Below are positions 1 to 20,211 of a DNA stretch of 64,000 nt, in pieces. Numbering within the stretch: the stretch's first letter is position 1; every line of letters begins with the position of its first letter. The notes beneath the pieces are model-generated. The model saw only the letters and a list, made by a program, of their open reading frames with translations, did no database searches and was not told the DNA's origin. Location: the NCBI RefSeq assembly GCF_056746865.1, contig NZ_CM163382.1. One strand, written 5' to 3'. The position numbers were made by a program, and so were the translations under genes.

Positions 1-1411
1 CGGGACGCAATTATCTGCAAATTACACCGCCTTTTTGTTAGGGTTGGGGCGCAACCTCGGGAACTGGGGCGCAGTGTCGCTGGATGTAACGCATGCGCGC
101 AGTCAGTTAGCCGACGACAGTCGTCATGAGGGGGATTCCATTCGCTTCCTCTATGCGAAATCAATGAACACTTTCGGCACCAATTTTCAGTTAATGGGTT
201 ACCGCTATTCGACACAAGGTTTTTATACCCTTGATGATGTTGCGTATCGTCGAATGGAGGGGTACGAATATGATTACGATTATGACGGTGAGCATCGCGA
301 TGAACCGATAATCGTGAATTACCACAATTTACGCTTTAGCCGTAAAGACCGTTTGCAGTTAAATATTTCACAATCACTTAATGACTTTGGCTCGCTTTAT
401 ATTTCTGGTACCCATCAAAAATACTGGAATACTTCGGATTCAGATACGTGGTATCAGGTGGGGTATACCAGCAGCTGGGTTGGCATCAGTTATTCGCTCT
501 CATTTTCGTGGAATGAATCTGTAGGGATTCCCGATAACGAACGTATTGTCGGACTTAATGTTTCAGTGCCTTTCAATGTTTTGACCAAACGTCGCTACAC
601 CCGGGAAAATGCGCTCGACCGCGCTTATGCCTCCTTTAACGCCAACCGTAACAGCAACGGGCAAAATAGCTGGCTGGCAGGTGTAGGTGGGACCTTACTG
701 GAAGGCCACAACCTGAGTTATCACGTAAGCCAGGGCGATACCTCGAATAATGGGTATACGGGTAGCGCTACGGCAAACTGGCAGGCCACTTACGGTACGC
801 TGGGGGTCGGGTATAACTACGACCGCGATCAACATGACGTTAACTGGCAGCTGTCTGGCGGTGTGGTCGGGCATGAAAATGGTATAACGCTGAGCCAGCC
901 TTTAGGGGATACCAATGTTTTGATTAAAGCGCCTGGCGCAGGCGGTGTACGCATTGAAAATCAAACTGGCATTTTAACCGACTGGCGCGGCTATGCGGTG
1001 ATGCCGTATGCCACGGTTTATCGGTATAACCGTATCGCGCTTGATACCAATACGATGGGGAATTCCATCGATGTTGAAAAAAATATTAGCAGCGTTGTGC
1101 CGACGCAAGGCGCGTTGGTTCGTGCCAATTTTGATACCCGCATAGGCGTGCGGGCGCTCATTACCGTTACCCAGGGCGGAAAACCGGTGCCGTTTGGATC
1201 ACTGGTACGGGAAAACAGTACCGGAATAACCAGTATGGTGGGTGATGACGGGCAAGTTTATTTAAGCGGTGCGCCATTGTCTGGTGAATTACTGGTTCAG
1301 TGGGGAGACGGTGCAAACTCACGCTGCATTGCGCACTATGTATTGCCGAAGCAAAGCTTACAGCAAGCCGTCACTGTTATTTCGGCAGTTTGCACACATC
1401 CTGGCTCATAA
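1..1411 (+). CDS. sfmD: fimbrial outer-membrane usher, C-terminal part (5' end lies outside the window)
   Basis: Frame open from window start to stop at 1409-1411; usher-like C-terminal sequence; followed by sfmH, sfmF and convergent fimZ as in the E. coli sfm operon. Confidence 0.8.
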
Positions 1412-2441: not shown

Positions 2442-2957
2442 ATGAGAAGAGTGCTCTTTAGCTGTTTCTGCGGGCTACTGTGGAGTTCCAGTGGATGGGC
2501 AGTTGACCCTTTAGGAACGATTAATATCAATTTGCACGGTAACGTTGTTGATTTCTCCTGTACCGTAAACACAGCGGATATTGATAAGACGGTAGATTTA
2601 GGCAGATGGCCTACGACACAACTACTGACCGCTGGCGATACCACGGCACTCGTCCCTTTTAGCCTGCGGCTGGAGGGATGTCCTCCGGGTTCAGTCGCGA
2701 TTTTATTTACGGGAACGCCGGCATCCGATACCAATCTGCTGGCTCTGGATGATCCCGCAATGGCACAAACCGTCGCCATCGAATTACGTAATAGCGATCG
2801 CTCCCGGCTCGCACTGGGGGAGGCGAGCCCGACTGAGGAAGTAGATGCAAATGGCAATGTCACACTAAACTTTTTTGCCAATTATCGAGCGTTAGCCAGC
2901 GGTGTTCAGCCAGGTGTGGCGAAAGCGGATGCGATATTTATGATCAATTATAATTAA
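2442..2957 (+). CDS. sfmF: minor fimbrial subunit
   Basis: ATG at 2442 preceded by GGAG; 171-aa product with signal peptide; longer ORF 2247-2957 rejected as upstream extension. Confidence 0.8.
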   Translation: MRRVLFSCFCGLLWSSSGWAVDPLGTININLHGNVVDFSCTVNTADIDKTVDLGRWPTTQLLTAGDTTALVPFSLRLEGCPPGSVAILFTGTPASDTNLLALDDPAMAQTVAIELRNSDRSRLALGEASPTEEVDANGNVTLNFFANYRALASGVQPGVAKADAIFMINYN

Positions 2958-3926: not shown

Positions 3927-5090
3927 TTACGCCTTCTTTATATCCTCCATAATTCCAGAGTGGGACATATTTGGGACATTATCACCAAAAATGTCGTCTA
4001 TTTTCCTCGCATGCTCTGTCAAATGATTAGGCGCAAGGTGAGCATACCTACGAACCATTTCTATGGACTCCCATCCGCCCATTTCCTGAAGCACTGATAA
4101 TGGGACGCCTGACTGAATCAGCCAGCTTGCCCAGGTGTGTCTGAGGTCATGGAAACGGAAATCTTCAATTCCTGCACGACGACAAGCTGATAGCCATGAT
4201 GTCTTGCTGTCGATGCGCATCTTCCTGACCGCAGGCGTTGATGTTCCATCTGCTCGCTTAGCCGCCTTGGTATGTACAAACACCCATTTGTGATGCTTGC
4301 CTATTTGATCACGCAACACTTTACAGGCGGTATCGTTCAGCGCCACACCAATGGCGCGGTTTGATTTGCTCTCTTCTGGATTCACCCAGGCAACTCGTCG
4401 CTGCATGTCGATTTGTTGCCATTCCAGATTTATGATGTTCGACTTTCTCAGACCAGTTGCCAGCGCAAACTTGACGACAGATTTCAGTGGTTCGGGGCAC
4501 TCATCAATAAGGCGTTTTGCTTCCTCCTTTTCCAGCCATCTGACTCGCTTGTTTCTGACCGCTGGTATCTTGATGACAGGCGCTTTTTCCAGCCACTTCC
4601 AGTCGCGTTCTGCAGCACGGAGAATGGCCTTTATCATGGCAAGATGCTTTGCCTTTGTCTGAGTTGATACTGGCTTTGGTTCATAAACAGGCAGTTCTTT
4701 ACCTTTCCTGATGGCGGCCTGAACTTTCTGTTTCCATATTTCTTTCGTCTTTCTGTTATGCATTCTGCTTACAGCAGAGTAAATCTTTGCCTCCGAGATA
4801 TCTTTAAGCCTTATACCCTCAAAATGTTCAAGCCAGAACTCAATCCGGCTTTTATCTGAATCGAGAGATTTTTTATCAGCTTTTTCCTCAAGCCATCTTA
4901 GGCAGGCCTCTTCAAAAGTGACATCAGGTAAATCCCCTAGCTTTTCTACTCGCCAGAGTTCTGCTTTTCGCTTGTCGTGCAACTCCTGAGCTTGCCGCTT
5001 GTCCTTTGTGCCAAGAGATTCCTTAATTCGTTTCCCGCCCGGGAGCGAATACGAGGCATACCATATTTCATTTCTGCGGAAGAGTGACAT
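3927..5090 (-). CDS. intD: tyrosine recombinase / prophage integrase (argU-site type)
   Basis: 387-aa ORF with C-terminal catalytic region (HDLRHTWAS...RYAH) immediately next to tRNA attL. Confidence 0.9.
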
Positions 5091-5833: not shown

Positions 5834-5925
5834 CTTCCATTAATCCCTGAATTGTTGGTTAATACGCTTGAGGATGAATGCGAACAATAAAAAAGGAGCC
5901 TGTAGCTCCCTGATGATTTTGCTTT

Positions 5926-6415: not shown

Positions 6416-6566
6416 ACCGCCTCCCGTTTATTATTTATCTTCTCAGCCAGCCGCTGTGCTTTCAGGGGATTTCTGATAACAGAAAGGCCGGGAAATACCC
6501 AGCCTCGCTTTGTAATGGAGTAGACGAAAGTGATCGCGCCTACCCGGATATTATCGTGAGGATGCG

Positions 6567-7247
6567 TCATCGCCATTGCTCCCCAAATACAAAACCAATT
6601 TCAGCCAGTGCCTCGTCCATTTTTTCGATGAACTCCGGCACCATCTCGTCAAAACTCGCCATGTAATTTTCATCCCGCTCAACCACGACATAATGCAGGC
6701 CTTCACGCTTCATTCGTGGGTCATAGTTGGCAAAGTACCAGGCATCTTTTCGCGTCACCCACATGCTGTACTGCACCTGGGCCATGTAAGCCGACTTTAT
6801 GGCCTCGAAACCACCGAGCCGGAATTTCATGAAATCCCGGGAGGTAAACGGGCATTTCAGTTCAAGGCCGTTGCCGTCACTGCATAAACCATCGGGAGAG
6901 CAGGCGGTGCGCATACTTTCGTCGCGATAGATGATCGGGGATTCAGTAACATTCACGCCGGAAGTAAACTCAAACAGGGCTCTGGCGTCGTTCTCGTACT
7001 GTTTTCCCCAGGCCAGCGCCTTAGCATTAACTTCCGGAGCCACACCGGTGCAAACCTCAGCCAGCAGGGTGTGGAAGTAGGACATTTTCATGTCAGGCCA
7101 CTTCTTTCCTGAGCGGGGCTTTGCTATCACGTTGTGAACTTCTGAAGCGGTGATGACGCCGAGCCGTAATTTGTGCCATGCATCATCCCCCTGTTCGACA
7201 GCTCTCACGTCGATCCCGGTACGCTGCAGGATAATGTCCGGTGTCAT
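6567..7247 (-). CDS. exo: lambda-type exonuclease (Red alpha)
   Basis: 226-aa product recognised as near-identical to lambda Exo ([25 protein letters not shown]...). Confidence 0.95.
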
Positions 7248-8029
7248 GCTGCCACCTTCTGCTCAGTGGCTTTCTGTTTCAGGAATCCAAGAGCTTTCAC
7301 TGCTTCGGCCTGTGTCAGTTCTGACGATGCGCGAATGTCGCGGCGAAATATCTGGGAACAGAGCGGCAATAAGTCGTCATCCCATGTTTTATCCAGGGCG
7401 ATCAGCAGAGTGTTAATCTCCTGCATGGTTTCATCGTTAACCGGAGTGATGTCGCGTTCCGGCTGACGTTCTGCAGTGTATGCGGTATTTTCGACAATGC
7501 GCTCGGCTTCATCCTTGTCATAGATACCAGCAAATCCGAAGGCCAGACGGGCACACTGAATCATGGCTTTATGACGTAACATCCGTTTGGGATGCGACTG
7601 CCACGGTCCGGTGATTTCTCTGCCTTCGCGGGTTTTGAATGGTTCGCGGCGGCATTCATCCATCCACTCGGTAACGCAGATCGGATGATTGCGGTCCTTG
7701 CGGTAAATCCGGCATGTGCAGGATTCATTGTCCTGCTCAAAGTCCATACCATCAAACTGCTGGTTTTCATTGATGATGCGGGACCAGCCATCAACGCCCA
7801 CCACCGGAACGATGCCATTCTGCTTATCAGGAAAGGCGTAAATTTCTTTCGTCCATGGATTAAGGCCGTACTGGTTGGCAACGATCAGTAATGCGATGAA
7901 CTGCGCATCGCTGGCATCACCTTTAAATGCCGTCTGGCGAAGAGTGGTGATCAGTTCCTGTGGGTCGACAGAATCCATGCCGACACGTTCAGCCAGCTTC
8001 CCTGCCAGCGTTGCGAGTGCTGTACTCAT
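7244..8029 (-). CDS. bet: recombination protein Bet (Red beta)
   Basis: 261-aa product recognised as lambda Bet; 4-bp overlap with exo. Confidence 0.95.
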
Positions 8030-8034
8030 CCGTT

Positions 8035-8331
8035 TTATACCTCTGAATCAATATCAACCTGGTGGTGAGCAATGGTTTCAACCATGTACCGGATGTGTTC
8101 TGCCATGCGCTCCTGAAACTCAACATCGTCATCAAACGCACGGGTAATGGCTTTTTTGCTGGCCCCGTGGCGTTGCAAATGATCGATGCATAGCGATTCA
8201 AACAGGTGCTGGGGCAGGCCTTTTTCCATGTCGTCTGCCAGTTCTGCCTCTTTCTCTTCACGGGCGATCTGCTGGTAGTGACGCGCCCAGCTCTGAGCCT
8301 CAAGACGATCCTGAATGTAATAAGCGTTCAT
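8035..8331 (-). CDS. gam: RecBCD inhibitor Gam (98-aa short form)
   Basis: [21 protein letters not shown]... matches lambda GamS. Confidence 0.9.
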
Positions 8332-8406
8332 GGCTGAACTCCTGAAAATGGCTGTGAAAAAATCGCCCGCGGAATGCCAGGCTGATTCGGAAAACAGGAA
8401 AGGGGA

Positions 8407-8697
8407 TTAGTGATTCAGACCGTTGCCGCGTCCGTCGAGAAAAACTTCCACGAGCAAGTCACGGGTATAAGTGCGCTCAATGCCGCGATGCAGATAAAGT
8501 CGTCCGCGTAAATTAGCTGATGCAGTCCAGGTACCATCTTTGCGTTTGACCAGCATTCCTGGCATGACCGCACCGCGATTAACGGTCTGCGTTCCGTAAT
8601 GTTGATGAACCATAAAAACTCCTGCCCGTAAGCTGGGCTGCTGAACATATAAAGACTTCTGCGCGTATTCAGGCGGTGGATGGCCGCCGGTTGTCAT
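8407..8697 (-). CDS. hypothetical protein, first gene of leftward early operon
   Basis: 96-aa ORF directly downstream of the putative pL/OL region; an alternative 77-aa frame (8415-8648) overlaps. Confidence 0.35.
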   Translation of the reverse strand: MTTGGHPPPEYAQKSLYVQQPSLRAGVFMVHQHYGTQTVNRGAVMPGMLVKRKDGTWTASANLRGRLYLHRGIERTYTRDLLVEVFLDGRGNGLNH

Positions 8698-8879
8698 AAC
8701 TAAGCCGCCTCGTTGAAGCGACTAAGGTATGAAATGTTGAGTTGATTTCAGCTGGTCACACCGACGTTCACGCGTCCGTTTCATCCCTCGCACTCCCCGA
8801 AGCCTGCTGAAATTCAAGCTGCGGATCTAAGCGGTCATCGCAACGGTGAATCAGGTAGTTGCCGTATCGTTGTGTTGTT

Positions 8880-8960
8880 GCGATGAACTTATTTAAAACT
8901 ATAGTTGTTTTATCGTCAACAACAAAAGTTGTTTTATTGGTTGTTTTAGATATAACTGGT
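8880..8960 (-). promoter_or_regulatory. leftward early promoter/operator region (pL/OL analogue)
   Basis: Palindromes GTTGTTTTATCGTCAACAAC and AACAACAAAAGTTGTT overlapping a minus-strand TTGACG-17-TTAAAT promoter-like sequence. Confidence 0.55.
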
Positions 8961-9054
8961 TGTATTTAGGATGGATTTATTTTGTGACTTGAATCGCATA
9001 GCGATAACTGAAGCGAGGTTATGGTGGTTTTTTTAACGGTGTGTGTGATGAGGG

Positions 9055-9087
9055 GAGGGCAAAAGAAAACCCGGCACGGTGGCCGGG
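9055..9087 (-). terminator. rho-independent terminator closing the repressor operon
   Basis: Minus-strand stem CCCGGC-CACCGT-GCCGGG followed by TTTTCTTTT, 9 bp past the stop of the 310-aa gene. Confidence 0.7.
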
Positions 9088-9095
9088 TAGCATCA

Positions 9096-10028
9096 CTATT
9101 CGATTTTTTTAACCATGTAGTTACGTCGTGATGTTCCTAATCTTTCATTGTGAATCTCAGAAACGCTTACTACGAGCGATATTCGTTCACCAACTTTATA
9201 TTTACTTTGAATTTCTCCTAACATATCAATCGGATAAGAAGCCTTTATTTTTCCAAGCTCGCTTGCAATCTCCAATTTCCCGTACATGGATAAAATAGCA
9301 AGTTCGCCTGATATATGCTCATCCGGTAGCTGAATGACCTTCGTTAAAGCTAAGCGAGCATTCAGTTTTTTTATATCTTCTGAAGAAATTGACACTTGTC
9401 TGGTACCATCACTTAAAGGTCCAATCCAAGTAAGATCAAAGTTAAGACTATATTTTTCGCACTCATTTATGATGTTTTTTAGGTTAGCTGTTGATTGCGA
9501 ACCAATTTCGGCAATTTTAGCCGTGAATGTTTCTTCATCAATGGATGAGAGTAGTGCAAAAATCTCCTTAACAGCATGACTGGATACTGTTTCGATGAGC
9601 TCGCAAGAACCAGTAGAAAAAGTAACACCTAACTTCGTCGAACCTGGACGCAAGTCTGCCAATCTCATGTCTAATGATTTTTTAACATCAATCGGCACAC
9701 GACTAGAATCTTTCCCAGATCCAAGTCGGTAAACTGCTTTCTGTACAAGGGATGCGAGATTACCTGAAATTACAGATAGAATATCTAACGGAATAGACCC
9801 GAAATCGACCAAAACACCTTTTAATCTCAACTCCATGAAATCACGTAAAGGATGTTGGTTATCGATTGCACGTTGTCTCTCTCGGAGATCGCTCAGATGG
9901 GAGTCAAGTGATCTAAATATAATGTCATCAGCAAATGATCTCCCCTTATTTTGAGCAAGCAGATCCACATCGCGTTGAATGAACGCAATTCGCTCCTTGA
10001 GGGAGTTGAATGTTTTTTCTTCGCTCAT
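9096..10028 (-). CDS. hypothetical 310-aa protein, second gene of repressor-linked cargo operon
   Basis: AT-rich ORF, start overlaps upstream gene stop by 4 bp; no recognisable motif; occupies the rexAB-equivalent position. Confidence 0.7.
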   Translation of the reverse strand: MSEEKTFNSLKERIAFIQRDVDLLAQNKGRSFADDIIFRSLDSHLSDLRERQRAIDNQHPLRDFMELRLKGVLVDFGSIPLDILSVISGNLASLVQKAVYRLGSGKDSSRVPIDVKKSLDMRLADLRPGSTKLGVTFSTGSCELIETVSSHAVKEIFALLSSIDEETFTAKIAEIGSQSTANLKNIINECEKYSLNFDLTWIGPLSDGTRQVSISSEDIKKLNARLALTKVIQLPDEHISGELAILSMYGKLEIASELGKIKASYPIDMLGEIQSKYKVGERISLVVSVSEIHNERLGTSRRNYMVKKIE

Positions 10029-10498
10029 AACATTACCCTCACGAGGCCTTTAGGATTCTCCTTCCGATCAAAACCAAACCACCCTCTCCAGTAACTTCGC
10101 CTTTCACTATAATCGATTTCTGGATGATTTTCAGGCAGCAAAAGAACGTCAATGCTGTAGTTTTCTTTAATAAAATCTCTATTTAACAATGAGCTGACCA
10201 ATGGCATCAGCGTGTTTGGCAAAGAGTTTAGGGCCAAATAATCGACGACCACGAGTATATCTATGTCATCAGGTTCAGGTTTCTCTGTAGTGAATGAACC
10301 ATCGATCCACACTTCAGAGAAACATAGACACTGCTGATTAACAAGTTTAAATTGCTCAATAAGCTGTATAAAATTACAGTATAGCATACTTCTTCTAACG
10401 GATTTTGGGAAGGTGTCGACACAAAGAGACTTGATGCCATCACTATCCATATCATGAAATCCTGCTGTAAGAAGAGGTGGGAAGCTAGGCTTTTCCAT
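10025..10498 (-). CDS. nucleotidyltransferase-fold (minimal NTase-like) protein, first gene of cargo operon
   Basis: Motif WIDGSFTTEKPEPDDIDILVVVD fits the G-S...D-x-D signature of Pol-beta-type NTases; 82 bp downstream of cI on same strand. Confidence 0.65.
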   Translation of the reverse strand: MEKPSFPPLLTAGFHDMDSDGIKSLCVDTFPKSVRRSMLYCNFIQLIEQFKLVNQQCLCFSEVWIDGSFTTEKPEPDDIDILVVVDYLALNSLPNTLMPLVSSLLNRDFIKENYSIDVLLLPENHPEIDYSERRSYWRGWFGFDRKENPKGLVRVML

Positions 10499-10579
10499 CC
10501 TAAGTCCTTGTTTATGCCATATAGTGTTCTATTTAATATTCTTGAAAAGAGTGTGCCTTAAAAAGCTACAGGCTAATTA

Positions 10580-11269
10580 TTAACCATGCTTCCTGTACGT
10601 CTGCGGCATGCTCCCAATAACCTTACCGAAGATGAACACCCGGTTCATCTCGTCTTTCTCGATCGGGTCCCACGGTGAGTAGCTTTTGTTATCAGAGATG
10701 ACCAGCAGCTTATCCTTCATCATTTGCAGGCGCTTTACATGGGCTGTGTCGTCGTACAGAAACGCATAGATACCATCACCGTCGAAAGATTTAACTGTGA
10801 TATCAACGAACAGCAGATCACCTGGTTCGATCGTTCCTGACATGCTGTCACCACGCACGTTAATGATGCGGATATTTTCCGCCTTCCTACCATCGAACAT
10901 GTGACGAGCATCGTCAAACGAGTACTCAACCGAGCGTAGAACTTCTACAAACTCACGGTTGATGACTCCCGGCCCAGCACTGACTTCTATATCAAGAACG
11001 TCAATCTTGAAGTATTTGGAATGGCTGACAGTTGATTGTATTGGTTGCACTGTACTGTCTGACATATTTCCAACGCCAGAAGATAACCATTCTGCGCGCA
11101 CACCCAAAGCGTTCGCGATCTCCACGATTTTAGTTGTTTGATTAGCTTTCCCTGTTTCGATTTTCTGAATAGCAGCCTGGCTAACCCCGACCAAATCCCC
11201 AAGCGCCTTTTGTGTAAGGCCTCGCGCTAATCTGGCTTCTTTAAGTCTTTCTGAGAGTGTTGTTTTCAT
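10580..11269 (-). CDS. CI-type prophage repressor (HTH_XRE plus S24 LexA-like peptidase domain)
   Basis: Start at MKTTLSERLKEARLARGLTQKALG; C-terminal GDSMSGTIEPGDLLFVD...KRL autocleavage-domain pattern; divergent from cro-like gene. Confidence 0.85.
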   Translation of the reverse strand: MKTTLSERLKEARLARGLTQKALGDLVGVSQAAIQKIETGKANQTTKIVEIANALGVRAEWLSSGVGNMSDSTVQPIQSTVSHSKYFKIDVLDIEVSAGPGVINREFVEVLRSVEYSFDDARHMFDGRKAENIRIINVRGDSMSGTIEPGDLLFVDITVKSFDGDGIYAFLYDDTAHVKRLQMMKDKLLVISDNKSYSPWDPIEKDEMNRVFIFGKVIGSMPQTYRKHG

Positions 11270-11373
11270 AGTCCAAATGTACAACCAAGGTTTTATTCCA
11301 TCAAACGAAAATGGTTGTTGACTAAAAACAACCATAGTTTTAATCTTGATTCAAATTAACCACGGAGGTTGTT
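11270..11373. promoter_or_regulatory. OR-like operator/promoter region between repressor and cro-like gene
   Basis: Palindrome ATGGTTGTTGACTAAAAACAACCAT overlapping a rightward TTGACT -35; GGAGG RBS before cro-like ATG. Confidence 0.6.
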
Positions 11374-11604
11374 ATGAACCCAGCTATCAAAACAGCGATC
11401 AATATCGTTGGTTCACAAAAGAAACTGGGCGCTGCTTGCGAAGTTTCACAGCAGGCCGTCTATAAGTGGCTTCACAACAAAGCAAAGGTATCCCCTGAAC
11501 ATGTCGGCAGCATTGTTACGGCTACTGGTGGAGTAGTGAAGGCATACCAGATTCGCCCGGATCTTCCGAAGTTGTTTCCACACACCGAAAAGAACGCAGC
11601 TTAA
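11374..11604 (+). CDS. Cro/YdaS-like small DNA-binding regulator
   Basis: 76-aa product, divergently transcribed from repressor; resembles Rac YdaS-type cro analogues. Confidence 0.65.
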   Translation: MNPAIKTAINIVGSQKKLGAACEVSQQAVYKWLHNKAKVSPEHVGSIVTATGGVVKAYQIRPDLPKLFPHTEKNAA

Positions 11605-11673
11605 ATTTCCATTTCACGCTCTTTAACAATAAGCAATCAACTTAACAGTCAATTCAAACTAAAGGAGTCAATT

Positions 11674-12213
11674 ATGCAACCACTTCCATACCAACAGACT
11701 AGCGGATTTAGCCCGACTGCGGTGATAAATCGTTCTCAAACAAAACAGGTGCCAGGCCACGAAAAAATCCGTGATGCCGTCCGCGCCTGGTCGGCTGTAG
11801 ATAATCAGGATGTCGTTGCCACACTCATTGTGAATGAGTATCGGGAGCAGGGCGGCGGCACCATCGATTTCCCTGATGATGTCAGCCGTGCACGCCAGAA
11901 GCTGTTCCGCTTCCTCGATAACAAATTCGATTCTGAAAAATACCGAAATAACGTGCGTGAACTGACCCCGGCAATTCTGGCGGTACTACCGCTGGAATAT
12001 CGCGGTTACCTGGTTGAGCAGGATAGCTTCATGGCTAGGTTGGCTGAAATGGAAAAGGAACTCAGTGAGGCAAAACAGGCTGTCATTCTCAACGCACCAC
12101 GCCACCAGAAACTGAAGGAAATTAGTGAAGGTATTGTATCGATGTTTCGTGTGGACCCAGATCTGGCTGGTCCATTGATGGCGATGGTTACTACCATGCT
12201 GGGGGCGATATGA
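11674..12213 (+). CDS. YdaT-like protein (CII position)
   Basis: 179-aa ORF after cro-like gene; sequence pattern reminiscent of Rac YdaT family. Confidence 0.45.
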   Translation: MQPLPYQQTSGFSPTAVINRSQTKQVPGHEKIRDAVRAWSAVDNQDVVATLIVNEYREQGGGTIDFPDDVSRARQKLFRFLDNKFDSEKYRNNVRELTPAILAVLPLEYRGYLVEQDSFMARLAEMEKELSEAKQAVILNAPRHQKLKEISEGIVSMFRVDPDLAGPLMAMVTTMLGAI

Positions 12214-12300
12214 CAGGTTCAGAAATGGCGAAAGCCGGTCTGCTGGAACAGAACCGACTTTCAGGTGCAAATCGTAACACACTCATTGCGGGAGGAATTA

Positions 12301-13229
12301 TGGCAAACACTGCTGAGATATTCAATTTTCCAGTGCCGGATGCGGCACAAAAGGAGCCGCGCGTGGCAGATCTCGATGATGGTTATACGCGCATTGCAAA
12401 TGAGTTGCTGGAAGCTGTGATGCTGGCCGGATTAACACAGCACCAGCTTCTGGTCTTCCTGGCTGTCATGCGCAAAACATATGGCTTTAATAAAAAACTG
12501 GATTGGGTGAGCAACGAGCAACTTTCCGAATTGACCGGGATATTGCCGCACAAGTGTTCTGCTGCAAAAAGCGTTCTGGTAAAGCGTGGGATTCTTATTC
12601 AGAGCGGGCGGAATATCGGCATTAATAATGTGGTCAGTGAATGGTCAACATTACCCGAATCAGGTAAGAAAAATAAAGTTTACCTGAAAGAGGTAAATTT
12701 ACCTGAATCAGGTAAGAAAAGTTTACCCAAATCAGGTAAAGGCGTTTACCCGAATCAGGTAAACACAAAAGACAAACTAACAAAAGACAATATAAAACCT
12801 TTTTCGTCCGAGAATTCTGGCGAATCCTCTGACCAGCCAGAAAACGATCTTCCTGTGGTGAAACCGGATGCTGCAATTCAGAGCGGCAGCAAGTGGGGGA
12901 CAGCAGAAGACCTGACCGCCGCAGAGTGGATGTTTGACATGGTGAAGACTATCGCACCATCAGCCAGAAAACCGAATTTTGCTGGGTGGGCTAACGATAT
13001 CCGCCTGATGCGTGAACGTGACGGACGTAACCACCGCGACATGTGCGTGCTGTTCCGCTGGGCCTGCCAGGACAACTTCTGGTCCGGTAACGTGCTGAGT
13101 CCGGCCAAACTCCGCGACAAGTGGACCCAGCTCGAAATCAACCGGAACAAGCAACAGGCTGGCGTGACAGTCGGCAAACCAAAACTCGACCTGACAAACA
13201 CTGACTGGATTTACGGGGTGGATCTATGA
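12301..13229 (+). CDS. O: replication initiator O (divergent N-terminal DNA-binding domain, lambda-like C-terminal domain)
   Basis: Start at MANTAEIFNF preceded by GGGAGG; C-terminal half recognised as lambda O; contains iterons. Confidence 0.85.
12651..12763. repeat. ori iterons (5 copies of an 18-bp TTACC-N8-GGTAA repeat) inside O
   Basis: ttacccgaatcaggtaag, ttacctgaaagaggtaaa, ttacctgaatcaggtaag, ttacccaaatcaggtaaa, ttacccgaatcaggtaaa, followed by an A-rich stretch. Confidence 0.8.
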
Positions 13230-13927
13230 AAAACATCGCCGCACAGATGGTTAACTTTGACCGTGAGCAGATGCGTCGGATCGCCAACAACATGCCGGAA
13301 CAGTATGACGAAAAGCCACAGGTACAGCAGGTAGCGCAGATCATCAACGGTGTGTTCAGCCAGTTACTGGCAACTTTCCCGGCGAGCCTGGCTAATCGTG
13401 AGCAGAACGAACTGAACGAAATCCGCCGCCAGTGGGTTCTGGCTTTCCGGGAAAACGGGATCACCACGATGGAACAGGTTAACGCAGGAATGCGCGTAGC
13501 CCGTCGGCAGAATCGACCATTCCTGCCATCCCCCGGACAGTTTGTAGCCTGGTGCCGGGAAGAAGCATCCGTTATTGCCGGACTACCAAACACCAGCGAG
13601 CTGGTTGATATGGTTTACGAGTATTGCCGGAAGCGTGGCCTGTATCCGGATGCAGAGTCTTATCCGTGGAAATCAAACGCGCACTACTGGCTGGTTACCA
13701 ACCTGTATCAGAACATGCGGGCCAATGCGCTTACTGATGCGGAATTACGGCGCAAGGCTGCCGATGAACTGACTTGTATGACCGCGCGAATTAACCGTGG
13801 TGAGGCGATACCTGAACCAGTAAAACAACTTCCTGTCATGGGCGGTAGACCTCTAAATCGTGCACAGGCTCTGGCGAAGATCGCAGAAATCAAAGCGAAG
13901 TTCGGACTGAAAGGAGCAACTGTATGA
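13226..13927 (+). CDS. P: replication protein P (DnaB helicase loader)
   Basis: 233-aa product recognised as near-identical to lambda P. Confidence 0.95.
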   Translation: MKNIAAQMVNFDREQMRRIANNMPEQYDEKPQVQQVAQIINGVFSQLLATFPASLANREQNELNEIRRQWVLAFRENGITTMEQVNAGMRVARRQNRPFLPSPGQFVAWCREEASVIAGLPNTSELVDMVYEYCRKRGLYPDAESYPWKSNAHYWLVTNLYQNMRANALTDAELRRKAADELTCMTARINRGEAIPEPVKQLPVMGGRPLNRAQALAKIAEIKAKFGLKGATV

Positions 13928-14474: not shown

Positions 14475-15977
14475 TTAAATTGCATCTGCAAACTCTGGGG
14501 TTTTTCGCTCAGGTATAATTGATGAGTTGCTGTTGTCACTTTTTTTATTTTCATGATTACGAATAGCCAATGACTCATTAAAGTCTTTTGCGACTGCTGT
14601 CTCAATAAATTCAATTTCTGAATCAGAGTGTTTTTTAACAGCTTCTTTGATCTCATCCAGAGTAACATAGAAAAACTCTTTTCTACGATTTACAAGATTG
14701 ACTCTCTTTTTATCGAAGACATCATGTAGTTTTTTTTCTAATGATGGAGCGTCCTCCGAATAAATCATGGCATGTACATCAAAAATAAAAGGAACAGATG
14801 CATCACCGAGCTCATTTACACGGTCTTGCGGATCAAGACGTCGTGTCATGCCTATTTTATAAACATTCTCCCCAAAAGAACCTATGTTCGAAATAATATA
14901 AACATGACCTTGTTTGGTTTGTTGTGCCATGGATAATGCTCTTTGATGCTTTGATTCAGCCTGCGACAAACTCTGTTCTAGTTCGGCAATGCGATTTTCG
15001 AGGCGCTGCTTCATGTCACCAGTAACTTTTTCCATTTCCTTTCTTGCAGCTTCAATTGCTTTTTTATAACGGCGCTCTTCTGCCTCTGCGTCTTGCATGG
15101 CCTTTTCTATTTCTCGTTGTGCACGCTCCTCCTCTCTCATTTGTGCCCTTATTTCTGCCTGTTCTTCTTTTTCTTTCTGTTTTTGCTCACGATATTCATG
15201 GGTAAGCCACAATTCCTCAAGTTTTTTATTGAGGTATTTAGTGTTTATATATATGTGATTTTGCTCGTTTAGTTTATTTATGGCCTCAAATGCCTTTGTG
15301 ATGCGTTCTTCCATTTTAGTGATGTTTTTCCACGTGCAATTGCTAATTGCAGCATCACATTCATTATTAAATGCTCTAGTAGTTAGCCTGATATTTCTGT
15401 CTGTCATTTTTTTACCCTCTGCTCGAGAGCCTTCAACAGTCCATTGGGTTGTACAATATACTGCGCCAGAGTGGGTTTTATCCCGCAGCATTAATTTCTG
15501 TTCATCCCTGATGGATTTTATTTTGTTTTTAAATTGCTCTGAATCTTCAAAATTAAAATGAGGTTCGTAAAATCCTAGTTCGGCTAGCTCAACATCTTCT
15601 GAATAAATAGAAATTTGCCTTACTAGTTTATCATATATTTCTTTCTTCTCTTTATAAGTTCTTCTTAGCTCTTGGATTTGTTTATTGATACCATCCATTT
15701 TTTCAATGGTGTTTGTTAGTTCATTATTGGCATTTTCTTTTACTTTTAGGGATTCTTCTTTTATTATGGAGCATTCTTGCTCTGTTTTCTCAATAAGCTT
15801 CTTACATTCTTCTTCTACATTAAAATAATCTGCAAAGCGAGATTTGTATTCTTCATTTTTTTGATTGCTATCACTTAATTCTAATTGTATTTTTTTGATG
15901 CGTTTGATTGCAGCTATATAAAGAACAAGAACAACCAATAAAAATATGATTGCAAGTAATAGAGGAGTTTGAGTCAT
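14475..15977 (-). CDS. membrane-anchored coiled-coil protein with C-terminal T5orf172/GIY-YIG-like domain (candidate defence/exclusion gene)
   Basis: N-terminal hydrophobic helix, long K/E-rich coiled coil, C-terminal GHVYIISN...YKIGMTRRLDPQDRVNEL...VPF motif; very AT-rich; opposite strand to surrounding early genes. Confidence 0.75.
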   Translation of the reverse strand: MTQTPLLLAIIFLLVVLVLYIAAIKRIKKIQLELSDSNQKNEEYKSRFADYFNVEEECKKLIEKTEQECSIIKEESLKVKENANNELTNTIEKMDGINKQIQELRRTYKEKKEIYDKLVRQISIYSEDVELAELGFYEPHFNFEDSEQFKNKIKSIRDEQKLMLRDKTHSGAVYCTTQWTVEGSRAEGKKMTDRNIRLTTRAFNNECDAAISNCTWKNITKMEERITKAFEAINKLNEQNHIYINTKYLNKKLEELWLTHEYREQKQKEKEEQAEIRAQMREEERAQREIEKAMQDAEAEERRYKKAIEAARKEMEKVTGDMKQRLENRIAELEQSLSQAESKHQRALSMAQQTKQGHVYIISNIGSFGENVYKIGMTRRLDPQDRVNELGDASVPFIFDVHAMIYSEDAPSLEKKLHDVFDKKRVNLVNRRKEFFYVTLDEIKEAVKKHSDSEIEFIETAVAKDFNESLAIRNHENKKSDNSNSSIIPERKTPEFADAI

Positions 15978-16370: not shown

Positions 16371-16789
16371 ACATTCGGTGTTTTACTTCGACAGCCAGAA
16401 TTGGGAGTCTCTATTCGTCTGGCGGCTAAAGGTGATATGGAAATCGTTATGTTTTGGCCTGAGGTAGTTGTAACTGTTGTAGCAGCTATGGATGTGATCA
16501 TCATGGTGTCCATTTACTGGGGTTGACGACATGATTTATCCGGCGCTATATTCTGTGCGTTGCCGCAAAATCGGCACACGGGATTGGCGTCCCGGGATAC
16601 TACTCAACGCATACCGCGTTAAGCGGTTTTTTTGTGCGCTAAGCACGGCTATGCCCAAATTATGGTGGGCTGTGTGAGGGCTTCTTCGGAAGCGCCGGGT
16701 TTGAGTAGCCGGTTACGCCAACCTTACACAGTTCACCACCAGTCGATTGGCGTCGTTGGTGGTGATGGTTAACCTGATGAGGTGATACT

Positions 16790-17398
16790 ATGACTACTCA
16801 ATTAGCATTCCACAAAACGACGTTTACCCCGATTTGCCACAATAACAGAATTTGGCTTACTGCCACTGAAGTTGGTTTAGCACTGGAATATGCGGACGAT
16901 AAAGCAGTTCAGCGCATTTACTCTCGGCACTCAGATGAATTCACAGATATGATGACAAGGGTGGTCAAAGTGACCACCCCTCGTGGAATGCAGGAGTCTC
17001 GAGTATTTAGCCTTCGCGGAGCCCATTTGATCGCCATGTTTGCTCGTACTCCTGTGGCCAAAGAATTCCGCCGCTGGGTTCTGGATATTCTCGATCGAGA
17101 AGTTCAACAATCCCCAATCACAAAACAATTCACTGATAACGAACTTTGCACACTCGCCTGGTTATGGCGAGCAAGTGATACGATGTTAACCGCCTGCCAG
17201 AACGTTACGCCCCTTCTTCAGGTCGCAGAGCATCGCGAAGCAGGTAGATTCACTTCAATCGAACAAGAATATCCTCGGATACTCAACAGGGCGCGAGAAA
17301 TCCTTGCCAGAGAAACGGCGCATGTAAAATTCCAACCGTGGCAGGATGATAAGTGGAGTCGTGTGTTACCATATTTCCGTCAGAATCTGTTGCAATAA
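16790..17398 (+). CDS. Bro-N/antirepressor-like protein
   Basis: N-terminal pattern ...RIWLTATEVGLALEY...RWVLDIL resembles Bro-N/Ant-type phage domains. Confidence 0.55.
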   Translation: MTTQLAFHKTTFTPICHNNRIWLTATEVGLALEYADDKAVQRIYSRHSDEFTDMMTRVVKVTTPRGMQESRVFSLRGAHLIAMFARTPVAKEFRRWVLDILDREVQQSPITKQFTDNELCTLAWLWRASDTMLTACQNVTPLLQVAEHREAGRFTSIEQEYPRILNRAREILARETAHVKFQPWQDDKWSRVLPYFRQNLLQ

Positions 17399-19742: not shown

Positions 19743-19827
19743 AGTCAGAGATAACAATCAACTAATACTGTTTTGTTGATTTTTGCTTGTAATTGGCGTT
19801 CTGGTCTGAGTTTTGTGGAGTAAGTTG

Positions 19828-20211
19828 ATGCGTGATATTCAGATGGTTCTTGAGCGTTGGGGAGCGTGGGCGGCTAATAATCATGAAGATGTGACCTGGT
19901 CGTCCATTGCCGCCGGTTTTAAGGGATTAATTCCTTCAAAAGTAAAATCTCGCCCGCAATGTTGTGACGATGACGCGATGATCATTTGCGGGTGCATGGC
20001 CCGTCTGAAAAAGAACAACAGCGATTTGCACGATTTATTAGTAGATTATTATGTAGTCGGTATGACATTCATGTCACTGGCAGGTAAGCATTGCTGCTCT
20101 GATGGTTATATCGGGAAAAGGTTACAAAAGGCTGAGGGCATAATTGAAGGGATGTTAATGGCATTAGATATCCGGTTAGAGATGGATATCGTTGTTAATA
20201 ACTCTAATTAA
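19828..20211 (+). CDS. quuD: late-gene antiterminator Q
   Basis: Start at [18 protein letters not shown]; recognised as DLP12-type Q; followed by hairpin-rich qut/terminator region. Confidence 0.85.

Follow-up and report, generated by a model that had tools for sequence, protein, structure and literature searches.

A kil gene heads the leftward early operon

The DNA analysed here, referred to as the window, is a 64,000-nucleotide stretch of contig NZ_CM163382.1 (NCBI RefSeq assembly GCF_056746865.1), and our subject is the segment upstream of gam in which an open reading frame (ORF) of 96 amino acids had been recorded as the first gene of a leftward operon, together with the untranslated leader in front of it (coordinates in Table 1). 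The leftward early operon of a lambdoid prophage begins in this segment; the prophage sits at argU (the DLP12 site) and is related to Perceval, an active, plaque-forming prophage of LF82 (PMC9928086). The locus including kil is 100% identical to that of E. coli 118UI, where the prophage adjoins tRNA-Arg and the intD integrase. Active relatives with a full annotation do not list N; that of Perceval, one of them, does list Q.

The initial annotation had given the 96-residue ORF (8407–8697, minus strand) and an overlapping 77-residue frame (8415–8648, minus strand) as the only ORFs of at least 60 residues between gam and the gene at 9096–10028, and had described the former as an unknown gene resembling neither lambda N nor Kil nor cIII. 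The inventory is correct, and by BLASTP and Pfam neither ORF is similar to lambda N, lambda Kil, lambda cIII, phi80 N or HK022 Nun; what does not hold is the description as unknown, for residues 29–96 are of the KilR/phi80-Kil type. They match PHROG_294 (“Kil”) at 1.4e-37 and align to positions 1–70 of the NCBIfam KilR model NF008465 at 9e-16, the score of 57.6 bits lying below the curated cut-off of 92 bits for this subfamily model. Identity amounts to 84% with HK225 Kil (68/68 residues, aligned from residue 1), 39% with phi80 Kil and 34% with Rac KilR (E = 2e-11, both proteins aligned from their first residue), and the Kil homologues measure 68–73 residues. A strong Shine–Dalgarno (SD) sequence, AGGAG, precedes the ATG at 8613 by 5 nt, the RefSeq coding sequence (CDS) WP_000233582.1 (68 residues, “phage encoded cell division inhibitor protein”) has the same coordinates, and among 69 distinct relatives the variable columns of kil are distributed 0/3/24 over the three codon positions. 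The 96-residue ORF is an over-long call of kil, and the real gene runs from 8613 to 8407.

By homology, the Kil encoded by the first gene is of a known type, which RefSeq already names, and it is a putative functional analogue, not a homologue, of lambda Kil. The 68-residue protein would be expected to inhibit FtsZ and cell division, an activity demonstrated for Rac KilR (PMC12482147, PMC5793797), whose gene is silenced by NusG/Rho (PMC5793797). Rac KilR and phi80 Kil are homologous to it along all 68 residues, have the same size and are likewise encoded in the leftward early operon upstream of recombination genes; the window Kil stays under the KilR subfamily cut-off and its activity is predicted only, and it is unrelated in sequence to lambda Kil. 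The 77-residue frame was rejected as a gene, being off frame to kil, whose codon periodicity is clear, and matching no family.

Public kil annotations are inconsistent within the family. PERCE_41 of Perceval (locus L002, 3258–3677) is a 139-residue CDS that starts at an ATC codon, and in PhiR30_1 the label “Kil” (locus L003, 3318–3524) has been given to the upstream pseudo-ORF while the real, intact kil (L003, 3490–3696) is unannotated. Correction of such over-long or mis-framed “Kil” annotations is a practical gain of the present analysis.

The leader of the pL transcript is non-coding

The leader had been placed at 8698–9060, which is wrong: because operator repeats common to this region and the OR region put OL and the leftward promoter pL at 8971–8891, the transcribed leader is 8884–8614, about 271 nt. 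A 19-nt operator (8893–8911) is 95% complementary to 11325–11343 in the OR region, further copies lie at 8921–8937 and 8957–8969, and the pL hexamers were read directly from the sequence. Homology between family members of different immunity types begins at about +2 of the pL transcript. The earlier remark that the leader is free of ORFs at a cut-off of 60 residues stands, though over 360 nt it has no statistical weight.

Upstream of kil, a 31-codon ORF (8817–8722) carries the motif KRTRERR and lies in frame with the 96-residue ORF, a single TAG separating the two. This TAG is polymorphic, about 60% of the variants having CAG and about 40%, the window included, TAG; it is the CAG that gives rise to the 139-residue “Kil” annotated in Perceval. 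Variable columns in 8826–8614 fall 14/6/9 on the three codon positions, without the periodicity seen in kil, and the ATG of the arginine-rich peptide is replaced by GTG in most variants. Upstream of Met29, natural variants show duplications (of the 5-nt TCAAC or of 37 nt) or a change of length by one base (+1 insertion or −1 deletion), with kil intact; in the plaque-forming PhiR30_1, a +1 insertion shifts the upstream ORF out of frame and likewise leaves kil intact. The KRTRERR motif is found because its codons (ACG CGT GAA CGT CGG) sit in a CG-rich hairpin. The first 28 codons of the 96-residue ORF and the 31-codon ORF are non-coding, the 28 codons being open by chance. Neither the 96-residue protein nor a small unlisted ORF thus turned out to be the N homologue that would have overturned the initial annotation, the KRTRERR ORF not being conserved as coding sequence. 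As a candidate mini-N, the arginine-rich 31-codon ORF is ruled out by its polymorphic start, stop and frame.

At its 5′ end the pL transcript is predicted to form a long-range stem (fold z-score −2.5) in which changes are seen only on one side and are wobble-compatible; the stem is dispensable because it is missing in variants with another promoter (loci L033 and L082). Its loop holds AACGAT (8871–8866, minus strand, about +14 to +19), a −10-like hexamer of the form NANNAT, and such hexamers are fairly frequent by chance. A sigma-dependent pause element of this form has been proposed for putL (PMC9378689). The pL leader contains no acceptable match to boxA, and its Rho-site composition signal is weak (C/G at most 1.67, with a G-rich core).

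Neither N, Nun nor put is found

The initial annotation had recognised no N between pL and gam, and this is borne out: we found no homologue and, in the 271-nt leader, no conserved ORF able to encode one. All six-frame ORFs of at least 30 residues in the window were compared with lambda N and phi80 N (BLASTP; phmmer --max) without a match, the best E value being 0.2 or worse, and the ORFs matched no N family in Pfam, PHROGs or NCBIfam. The proposed comparison of the 96-residue protein with N and Nun revealed no homology either, and over all six-frame ORFs the best E value for Nun was 4.3, with no meaningful BLASTP match. Negative homology is weak evidence in the case of N because PHROGs leaves phi80 N unlabelled as N; PHROGs labels are equally uninformative on the genes upstream of the terminator tL1 in the relatives, all of which, phi80 N included, are listed as “unknown function”. 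The stronger argument against N is the missing conserved ORF. No ORF with an arginine-rich N terminus was found in the early regions, and the search for nut sites yielded a boxA on the right only, with no stable hairpin in the cro–cII spacer and no boxB-like hairpin common to both sites.

A put-like RNA in the leader had been suggested as an alternative, and none was detected by covariance model, motif search or BLAST. The model (R1) was built from HK022 putL and HK639 putL with the published two-stem structure and recovers HK022 putR as a positive control at 27 bits (E = 5e-6). Its best score in the window was 7.8 bits, inside bet, and 6.8 bits over 8300–13500 with filters off, and nothing was found in the Perceval, PhiR30_1, phi80 and HK225 loci; the motif search returned only chance matches and the BLAST search was negative. 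N-less lambdoid phages have been noted earlier, and put was guessed to serve them (PMC12315714); judged by these searches, the guess fails for the present Perceval-related family.

The terminator tL1 is missing together with N

On the left, tL1 is the terminator that N normally overcomes. In the six relatives with the exact motif, a GC hairpin with a T-run is followed by CATAC(C) and a second hairpin, here called hairpin A, and the arrangement is the same in CobraSix and S9-5. The window becomes similar to these relatives from TTTCATACC (8734) onwards; upstream of this point both N and the tL1 stem are missing, and neither a consensus terminator scan nor folding revealed a hairpin with a U-run between +1 and kil. 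To judge from the sequence, N is truly absent, and tL1 with it. This joint absence is the main reason for favouring N-independence over a hidden replacement, since without tL1 the argument that N must be replaced on the left is weakened.

The leftward operon of phi80 and HK225 has the order pL–nutL–N–tL1–conserved element–kil. It shares with the window similar first transcript bases, the same post-tL1 element and the same kil family, whereas its nutL (boxA and boxB), its N gene or other upstream ORFs and its tL1 stem are all absent from the window and are replaced by a 114-nt leader core.

A conserved structured RNA element precedes kil

The element at 8734–8672 is homologous to segments of phi80 (just after the annotated tL1A, downstream of N), HK225 (95% identity over 63 nt), HK639 (part of whose segment bears a terminator annotation), KO-TP1, ENT1, CobraSix and S9-5. 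The relatives have in common the order upstream gene, GC hairpin with T-run, CATAC(C) (CATACA in HK639), hairpin A, (A/T)TTATGA and hairpin B (GGCGG-CYATCCA-CCGCY), after which come GCAGARGTCTT, a small hairpin, an SD and the next gene, often kil. The stem of hairpin A differs in sequence from phage to phage and shows compensatory double changes in six of its nine pairs; 97.8% of the cells pair, none of 500 shuffles reaches the covariation score, and slid controls collapse. The element as a whole folds with a z-score of −4.5 relative to shuffled sequence. In four genera, an element with covarying hairpin A, invariant UUAUGA and invariant hairpin B stands just downstream of a tL1-type terminator, usually before kil.

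The ORF starting from the conserved AUG has 20–43 codons in the relatives and specifies unrelated peptides, its frame over hairpin B being shifted in CobraSix. As the peptide is not conserved, the conserved object is RNA and not protein. The 58 nt that follow, up to the kil start, contain GCAGAAGTCTT, which is read in three different frames among the relatives; they have the lowest non-coding diversity (pi 0.0096 vs 0.061 at kil third positions, 4/58 columns variable) and no third-position excess of variation.

The element is not in Rfam, which even at E values up to 10 gave only chance matches elsewhere in 8000–12500, and a literature search found no paper containing the conserved sequences. 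Its definition as a conserved structured RNA absent from Rfam is a further practical gain. Together with the 58 nt before kil, the hairpin A/B element may exert post-transcriptional control over the toxic kil. A kil leader that yields a functional RNA is known from the lambdoid prophage Rac, where the small RNA KilS comes from the 5′ untranslated region of kilR (PMC8175672); neither KilS nor the region upstream of kilR, however, is similar to the window leader (local alignment score 18 vs a shuffled mean of 18.3).

The leader core is confined to the family

The 114-nt leader core between pL and the conserved element has no homologue outside the Perceval-related family. It is present in single copy: a model of it (R2) scores 146 bits on itself and 149 bits on Perceval, and R2 found nothing further in the window, across the whole Perceval genome or at 12 other loci; BLAST gave no second copy either. 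Its diversity (pi 0.026) is lower than that at kil third positions (0.061), and it tolerates small indels such as a +1 insertion and duplications of 5 nt. Covariation is seen in none of the 33 predicted pairs, the family being too uniform to show any. Folding is ordinary (z-score +0.6), but so is that of genuine put RNAs (−0.8 and −0.9); the folding z-score therefore does not discriminate put-like RNA, and the test was abandoned. The core could be a new antiterminator RNA, a regulator of Kil or a tolerated remnant.

A consensus boxA lies in the rightward early transcript

The spacer between cro and cII contains a perfect GCTCTTTAACAA at 11618–11629 (plus strand), the only one in the 64 kb. The C/G ratio reaches 3.0 over 11575–11692, and the spacer has neither a stable fold nor a boxB-like hairpin. 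Two short blocks flank the boxA and occur again, further apart, in the pL leader. Its features suggest a Rho site together with a boxA of the rrn type. What the spacer has in common with the rrn-type boxA/Nus system is a perfect consensus boxA, located in untranslated, C-rich sequence that belongs to the rightward early transcript; the differences are that boxA occurs on the right only and in no more than about half of the family. It is the excess of C over G that suggests a Rho site. At CRISPR arrays, boxA and Nus factors alone are reported to block Rho (PMC7665894).

Among 80 related loci, about half have the boxA spacer, namely those with the same cro–cII sequence, and in Perceval-type members cro and cII are instead separated by 24 nt that hold a GC hairpin. 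This hairpin (GCCGC-CTAATCT-GCGGC, L002 about 285–305, minus strand) is nearly identical to the tL1 stem of phi80, KO-TP1 and CobraSix (GCCGC-CTAACCA-GCGGC) and has no T-run.

A possible early programme without N

The best explanation, in our view, is a kil leader lacking N and tL1, with N-independent read-through on the left and boxA/Nus on the right; we hold its chances of being right to be about even. RNA polymerase starting at pL (8919–8891) would transcribe the untranslated leader of about 271 nt, then kil, then gam, bet and exo, and with tL1 absent it would reach these genes unaided by a dedicated antiterminator. Acting after transcription start, the conserved element and the constrained 58 nt in front of kil would probably control how well the toxic kil message is translated or how stable it is. 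In the rightward transcript, the boxA in the C-rich, G-poor cro–cII spacer would recruit the host Nus complex, as in rrn operons, and resist Rho. N-independent mutants of lambda (the nin5 deletion, byp) also grow without N through removal or bypass of terminators. They resemble what the missing tL1 suggests for the window, loss of a terminator rather than gain of a new antiterminator, but they are laboratory mutants affecting the right operon, whereas the state of the window is natural, fixed in a common family and found in the left operon, and terminator-like sites remain.

Several observations weigh against this explanation. A terminator-like hairpin (8382–8365) remains between kil and gam, in a spacer that N-encoding phages such as 2B8 also have in front of gam. 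A strong terminator (5911–5893), which the RefSeq annotation leaves between genes, precedes traR, xis and int, so that expression of xis and int from pL needs read-through or other promoters. In the right operon, a terminator-like sequence (16613–16627) and a 500-residue gene on the opposite strand precede Q. The boxA is not a general answer, because only about half of the family has it. Finally, the constraint on the leader core, with diversity below the neutral level, is unaccounted for.

In the first alternative, the core (8848–8735) is a new cis-acting antiterminator RNA, put-like in action and unrelated in sequence, that modifies the polymerase initiating at pL and thereby brings about read-through of the kil–gam and 5911–5893 terminators. 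The core lies directly downstream of pL, as putL does, homology across immunity types starts at the transcription start, the diversity of the core is under half that of neutral sites, it is kept in 2,209 of 5,426 genomes, there are real terminators downstream, and AACGAT parallels the pause element proposed for putL (PMC9378689). Its single copy is not disqualifying, because the put-like RNA of HK639 is annotated only on the left. However, the core matches neither the put model nor any Rfam family, lacks covariation in all predicted pairs and tolerates the +1 insertion and 5-nt duplications, and loss of tL1 would be needless in a phage that possesses an antiterminator, HK639 having kept its terminators. 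We regard this alternative as rather unlikely.

HK022 and HK639 are a close known parallel: as in the window, N is lacking and pL is followed at once by conserved non-coding RNA, and HK639 has the hairpin B segment further downstream, as in the window. Their put RNAs, which act through the zinc-binding domain of the RNA polymerase beta′ subunit (PMC9378689), nevertheless have no sequence or structure match in the window, and HK639 has kept terminators after its first genes whereas the window family is without tL1. An “M3-like RNA” is annotated in HK639 just after cII (L090, 2611–2670), and no putR is annotated; for a counterpart of the M3-like RNA there is no room in the window because cII and O overlap.

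A second alternative, an unrecognised protein antiterminator encoded elsewhere in the prophage, by the host or by another prophage and acting at sites such as blocks 1 and 2, seems to us improbable. Both early transcripts carry the collinear blocks, 15 and 13 nt long with a single mismatch in each, just as those of lambda carry nutL and nutR, N-like proteins escape family databases, and several early genes have no known function. Against it, the place where the first gene canonically lies holds no conserved ORF, a boxB-like hairpin common to both sites is missing, the early regions contain no ORF with an arginine-rich N terminus, and family members of other immunity types keep blocks 1 and 2 on the left with no right counterpart within 4 kb. 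As far as these searches go, neither another protein nor an RNA in the place of N has positive support.

That the long ORF is real after all and its product, of 96 residues or, in CAG variants, a 126–139-residue arginine-rich/Kil fusion as in the Perceval annotation, is an N-like RNA-binding antiterminator can hardly be right: KRTRERR resembles the lambda N motif RRRERR (5/9 identities, E = 1.7), a GGAG stands 8 nt before the arginine-rich start, the ORF is open in about 60% of the variants and the AUG at 8697 is in frame with kil in most of them, but the TAG of the other variants, the frame-breaking duplications, insertion and deletion that spare kil, the lack of codon periodicity, the CG-rich hairpin that explains the arginine codons, the short, unrelated and in CobraSix frame-shifted ORFs that start from the AUG in relatives and the size of the Kil homologues speak against it.

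Returning to an early programme without N, we tentatively put forward two proposals that stand jointly, and we would rate the pair as possible rather than probable: that no N-type protein takes part in the early programme of the lambdoid prophage family most widespread in E. coli, which would rely on either a new, put-unrelated core RNA or host factors alone (boxA/Nus on the right, loss of tL1 on the left), and that the hairpin A/B element is a previously undescribed regulatory RNA common to lambdoid phages of Escherichia, Salmonella, Klebsiella and Enterobacter. In the textbook picture, N-dependent antitermination switches the early development of lambdoid phages, and put of HK022 and HK639 is, to our knowledge, the only well-studied exception. 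Since a natural, active and common family is without N, Nun, put and the first N-dependent terminator, the timing of its early genes, including the toxic kil and the Red genes, would be organised differently. This bears on prophage induction, on the silencing of kil in lysogens and on the reach of the lambda model to the prophages that populate E. coli genomes.

Prevalence and prophage setting

A 769-nt module was detected at a coverage of at least 80% in 2,022 of 5,426 complete E. coli genomes, and the leader core in 2,209, in none of which it is annotated; about 40% of complete E. coli genomes carry the module. Isolated phages among the family members are the PhiR series, IdasGreatGrand and 4A7.

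Table 1. Features of the window, followed by copies of the post-tL1 RNA element in relatives (locus coordinates)
Feature	Position	Strand	Remarks
int	3927–5090		
Strong intrinsic terminator	5893–5911	−	8-bp stem, then TTTTTATTGTT; between orf61-like and traR-like genes
exo	6567–7247		
bet	7244–8029		
gam	8331–8035	−	Pfam Gam, 3e-65
Terminator-like hairpin with T6	8365–8382	−	kil–gam spacer; consensus scan; −13.9 kcal/mol, z −1.35
kil	8613–8407	−	68 aa, stop codon included; KilR/phi80-Kil-family cell-division inhibitor (predicted)
kil translation-initiation region	8614–8671	−	SD AGGAG 8623–8619; small GCCC/GGGC hairpin just upstream; inside N-terminal extension of 96-aa ORF
Post-tL1 RNA element	8672–8734	−	TTTCATACC; hairpin A 8723–8703; TTATG (AUG 8697–8695, start of 96-aa ORF); hairpin B GGCGG-CCATCCA-CCGCC 8688–8672
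Leader core	8735–8848	−	114 nt, G-rich; predicted hairpins 8825–8796 and 8773–8760; holds 31-codon pseudo-ORF 8817–8722
Block 2	8735–8747	−	AATCAACTCAACA; 12/13 bases match 11635–11647 (+) in cro–cII spacer; site of TCAAC copy-number polymorphism
Block 1	8809–8823	−	CGCAGCTTGAATTTC; 14/15 bases match 11595–11609 (+) in cro–cII spacer
5′-terminal long-range stem of pL transcript	8836–8885	−	CATCGCAAC (8885–8877) pairs with GTTGCGATG (8844–8836)
OL operators and pL	8891–8971	−	−35 TTGACG 8919–8914; −10 TTAAAT 8896–8891; +1 about 8884
Terminator of cI-side operon	9088–9069		Hairpin
rex-position gene 1	9096–10028	−	310 aa; PHROG_6603 (unknown function)
rex-position gene 2	10025–10498	−	157 aa; DUF6932; weak nucleotidyltransferase-like matches
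Repressor	10580–11335		S24/HTH
cro	11374–11604		YdaS-type
cro–cII spacer	11595–11647	+	Block 1, consensus boxA CGCTCTTTAACAA (11617–11629), block 2
cII	11674–12213		YdaT-type
DUF4041 + T5orf172 gene	14475–15977	−	500 aa; opposite strand in rightward early operon, between ren and nin genes
Q antiterminator	19813–20211		PF06530, 1e-53
Element copy, L006 (phi80)	about 6417–6476		
Element copy, L088	about 2490–2552		
Element copy, L089	2501–2563		
Element copy, L093	1501–1600		
Element copy, L094	1501–1562		
Element copy, L095	1501–1559		
Element copy, L096	1501–1578		

On the rightward side, the prophage has O, P and nin genes. The opposite-strand gene with DUF4041 and T5orf172 is followed by a promoter-like site (16523–16552), the terminator-like sequence and a Bro-N/P22 antirepressor-like gene (16790–17398). 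The two minus-strand genes in the rex position (9096–10498) lie downstream of cI and are ended by the terminator at 9088–9069, in a slot that is variable among family members; by their position they may form a defence or toxin pair expressed in the lysogen.

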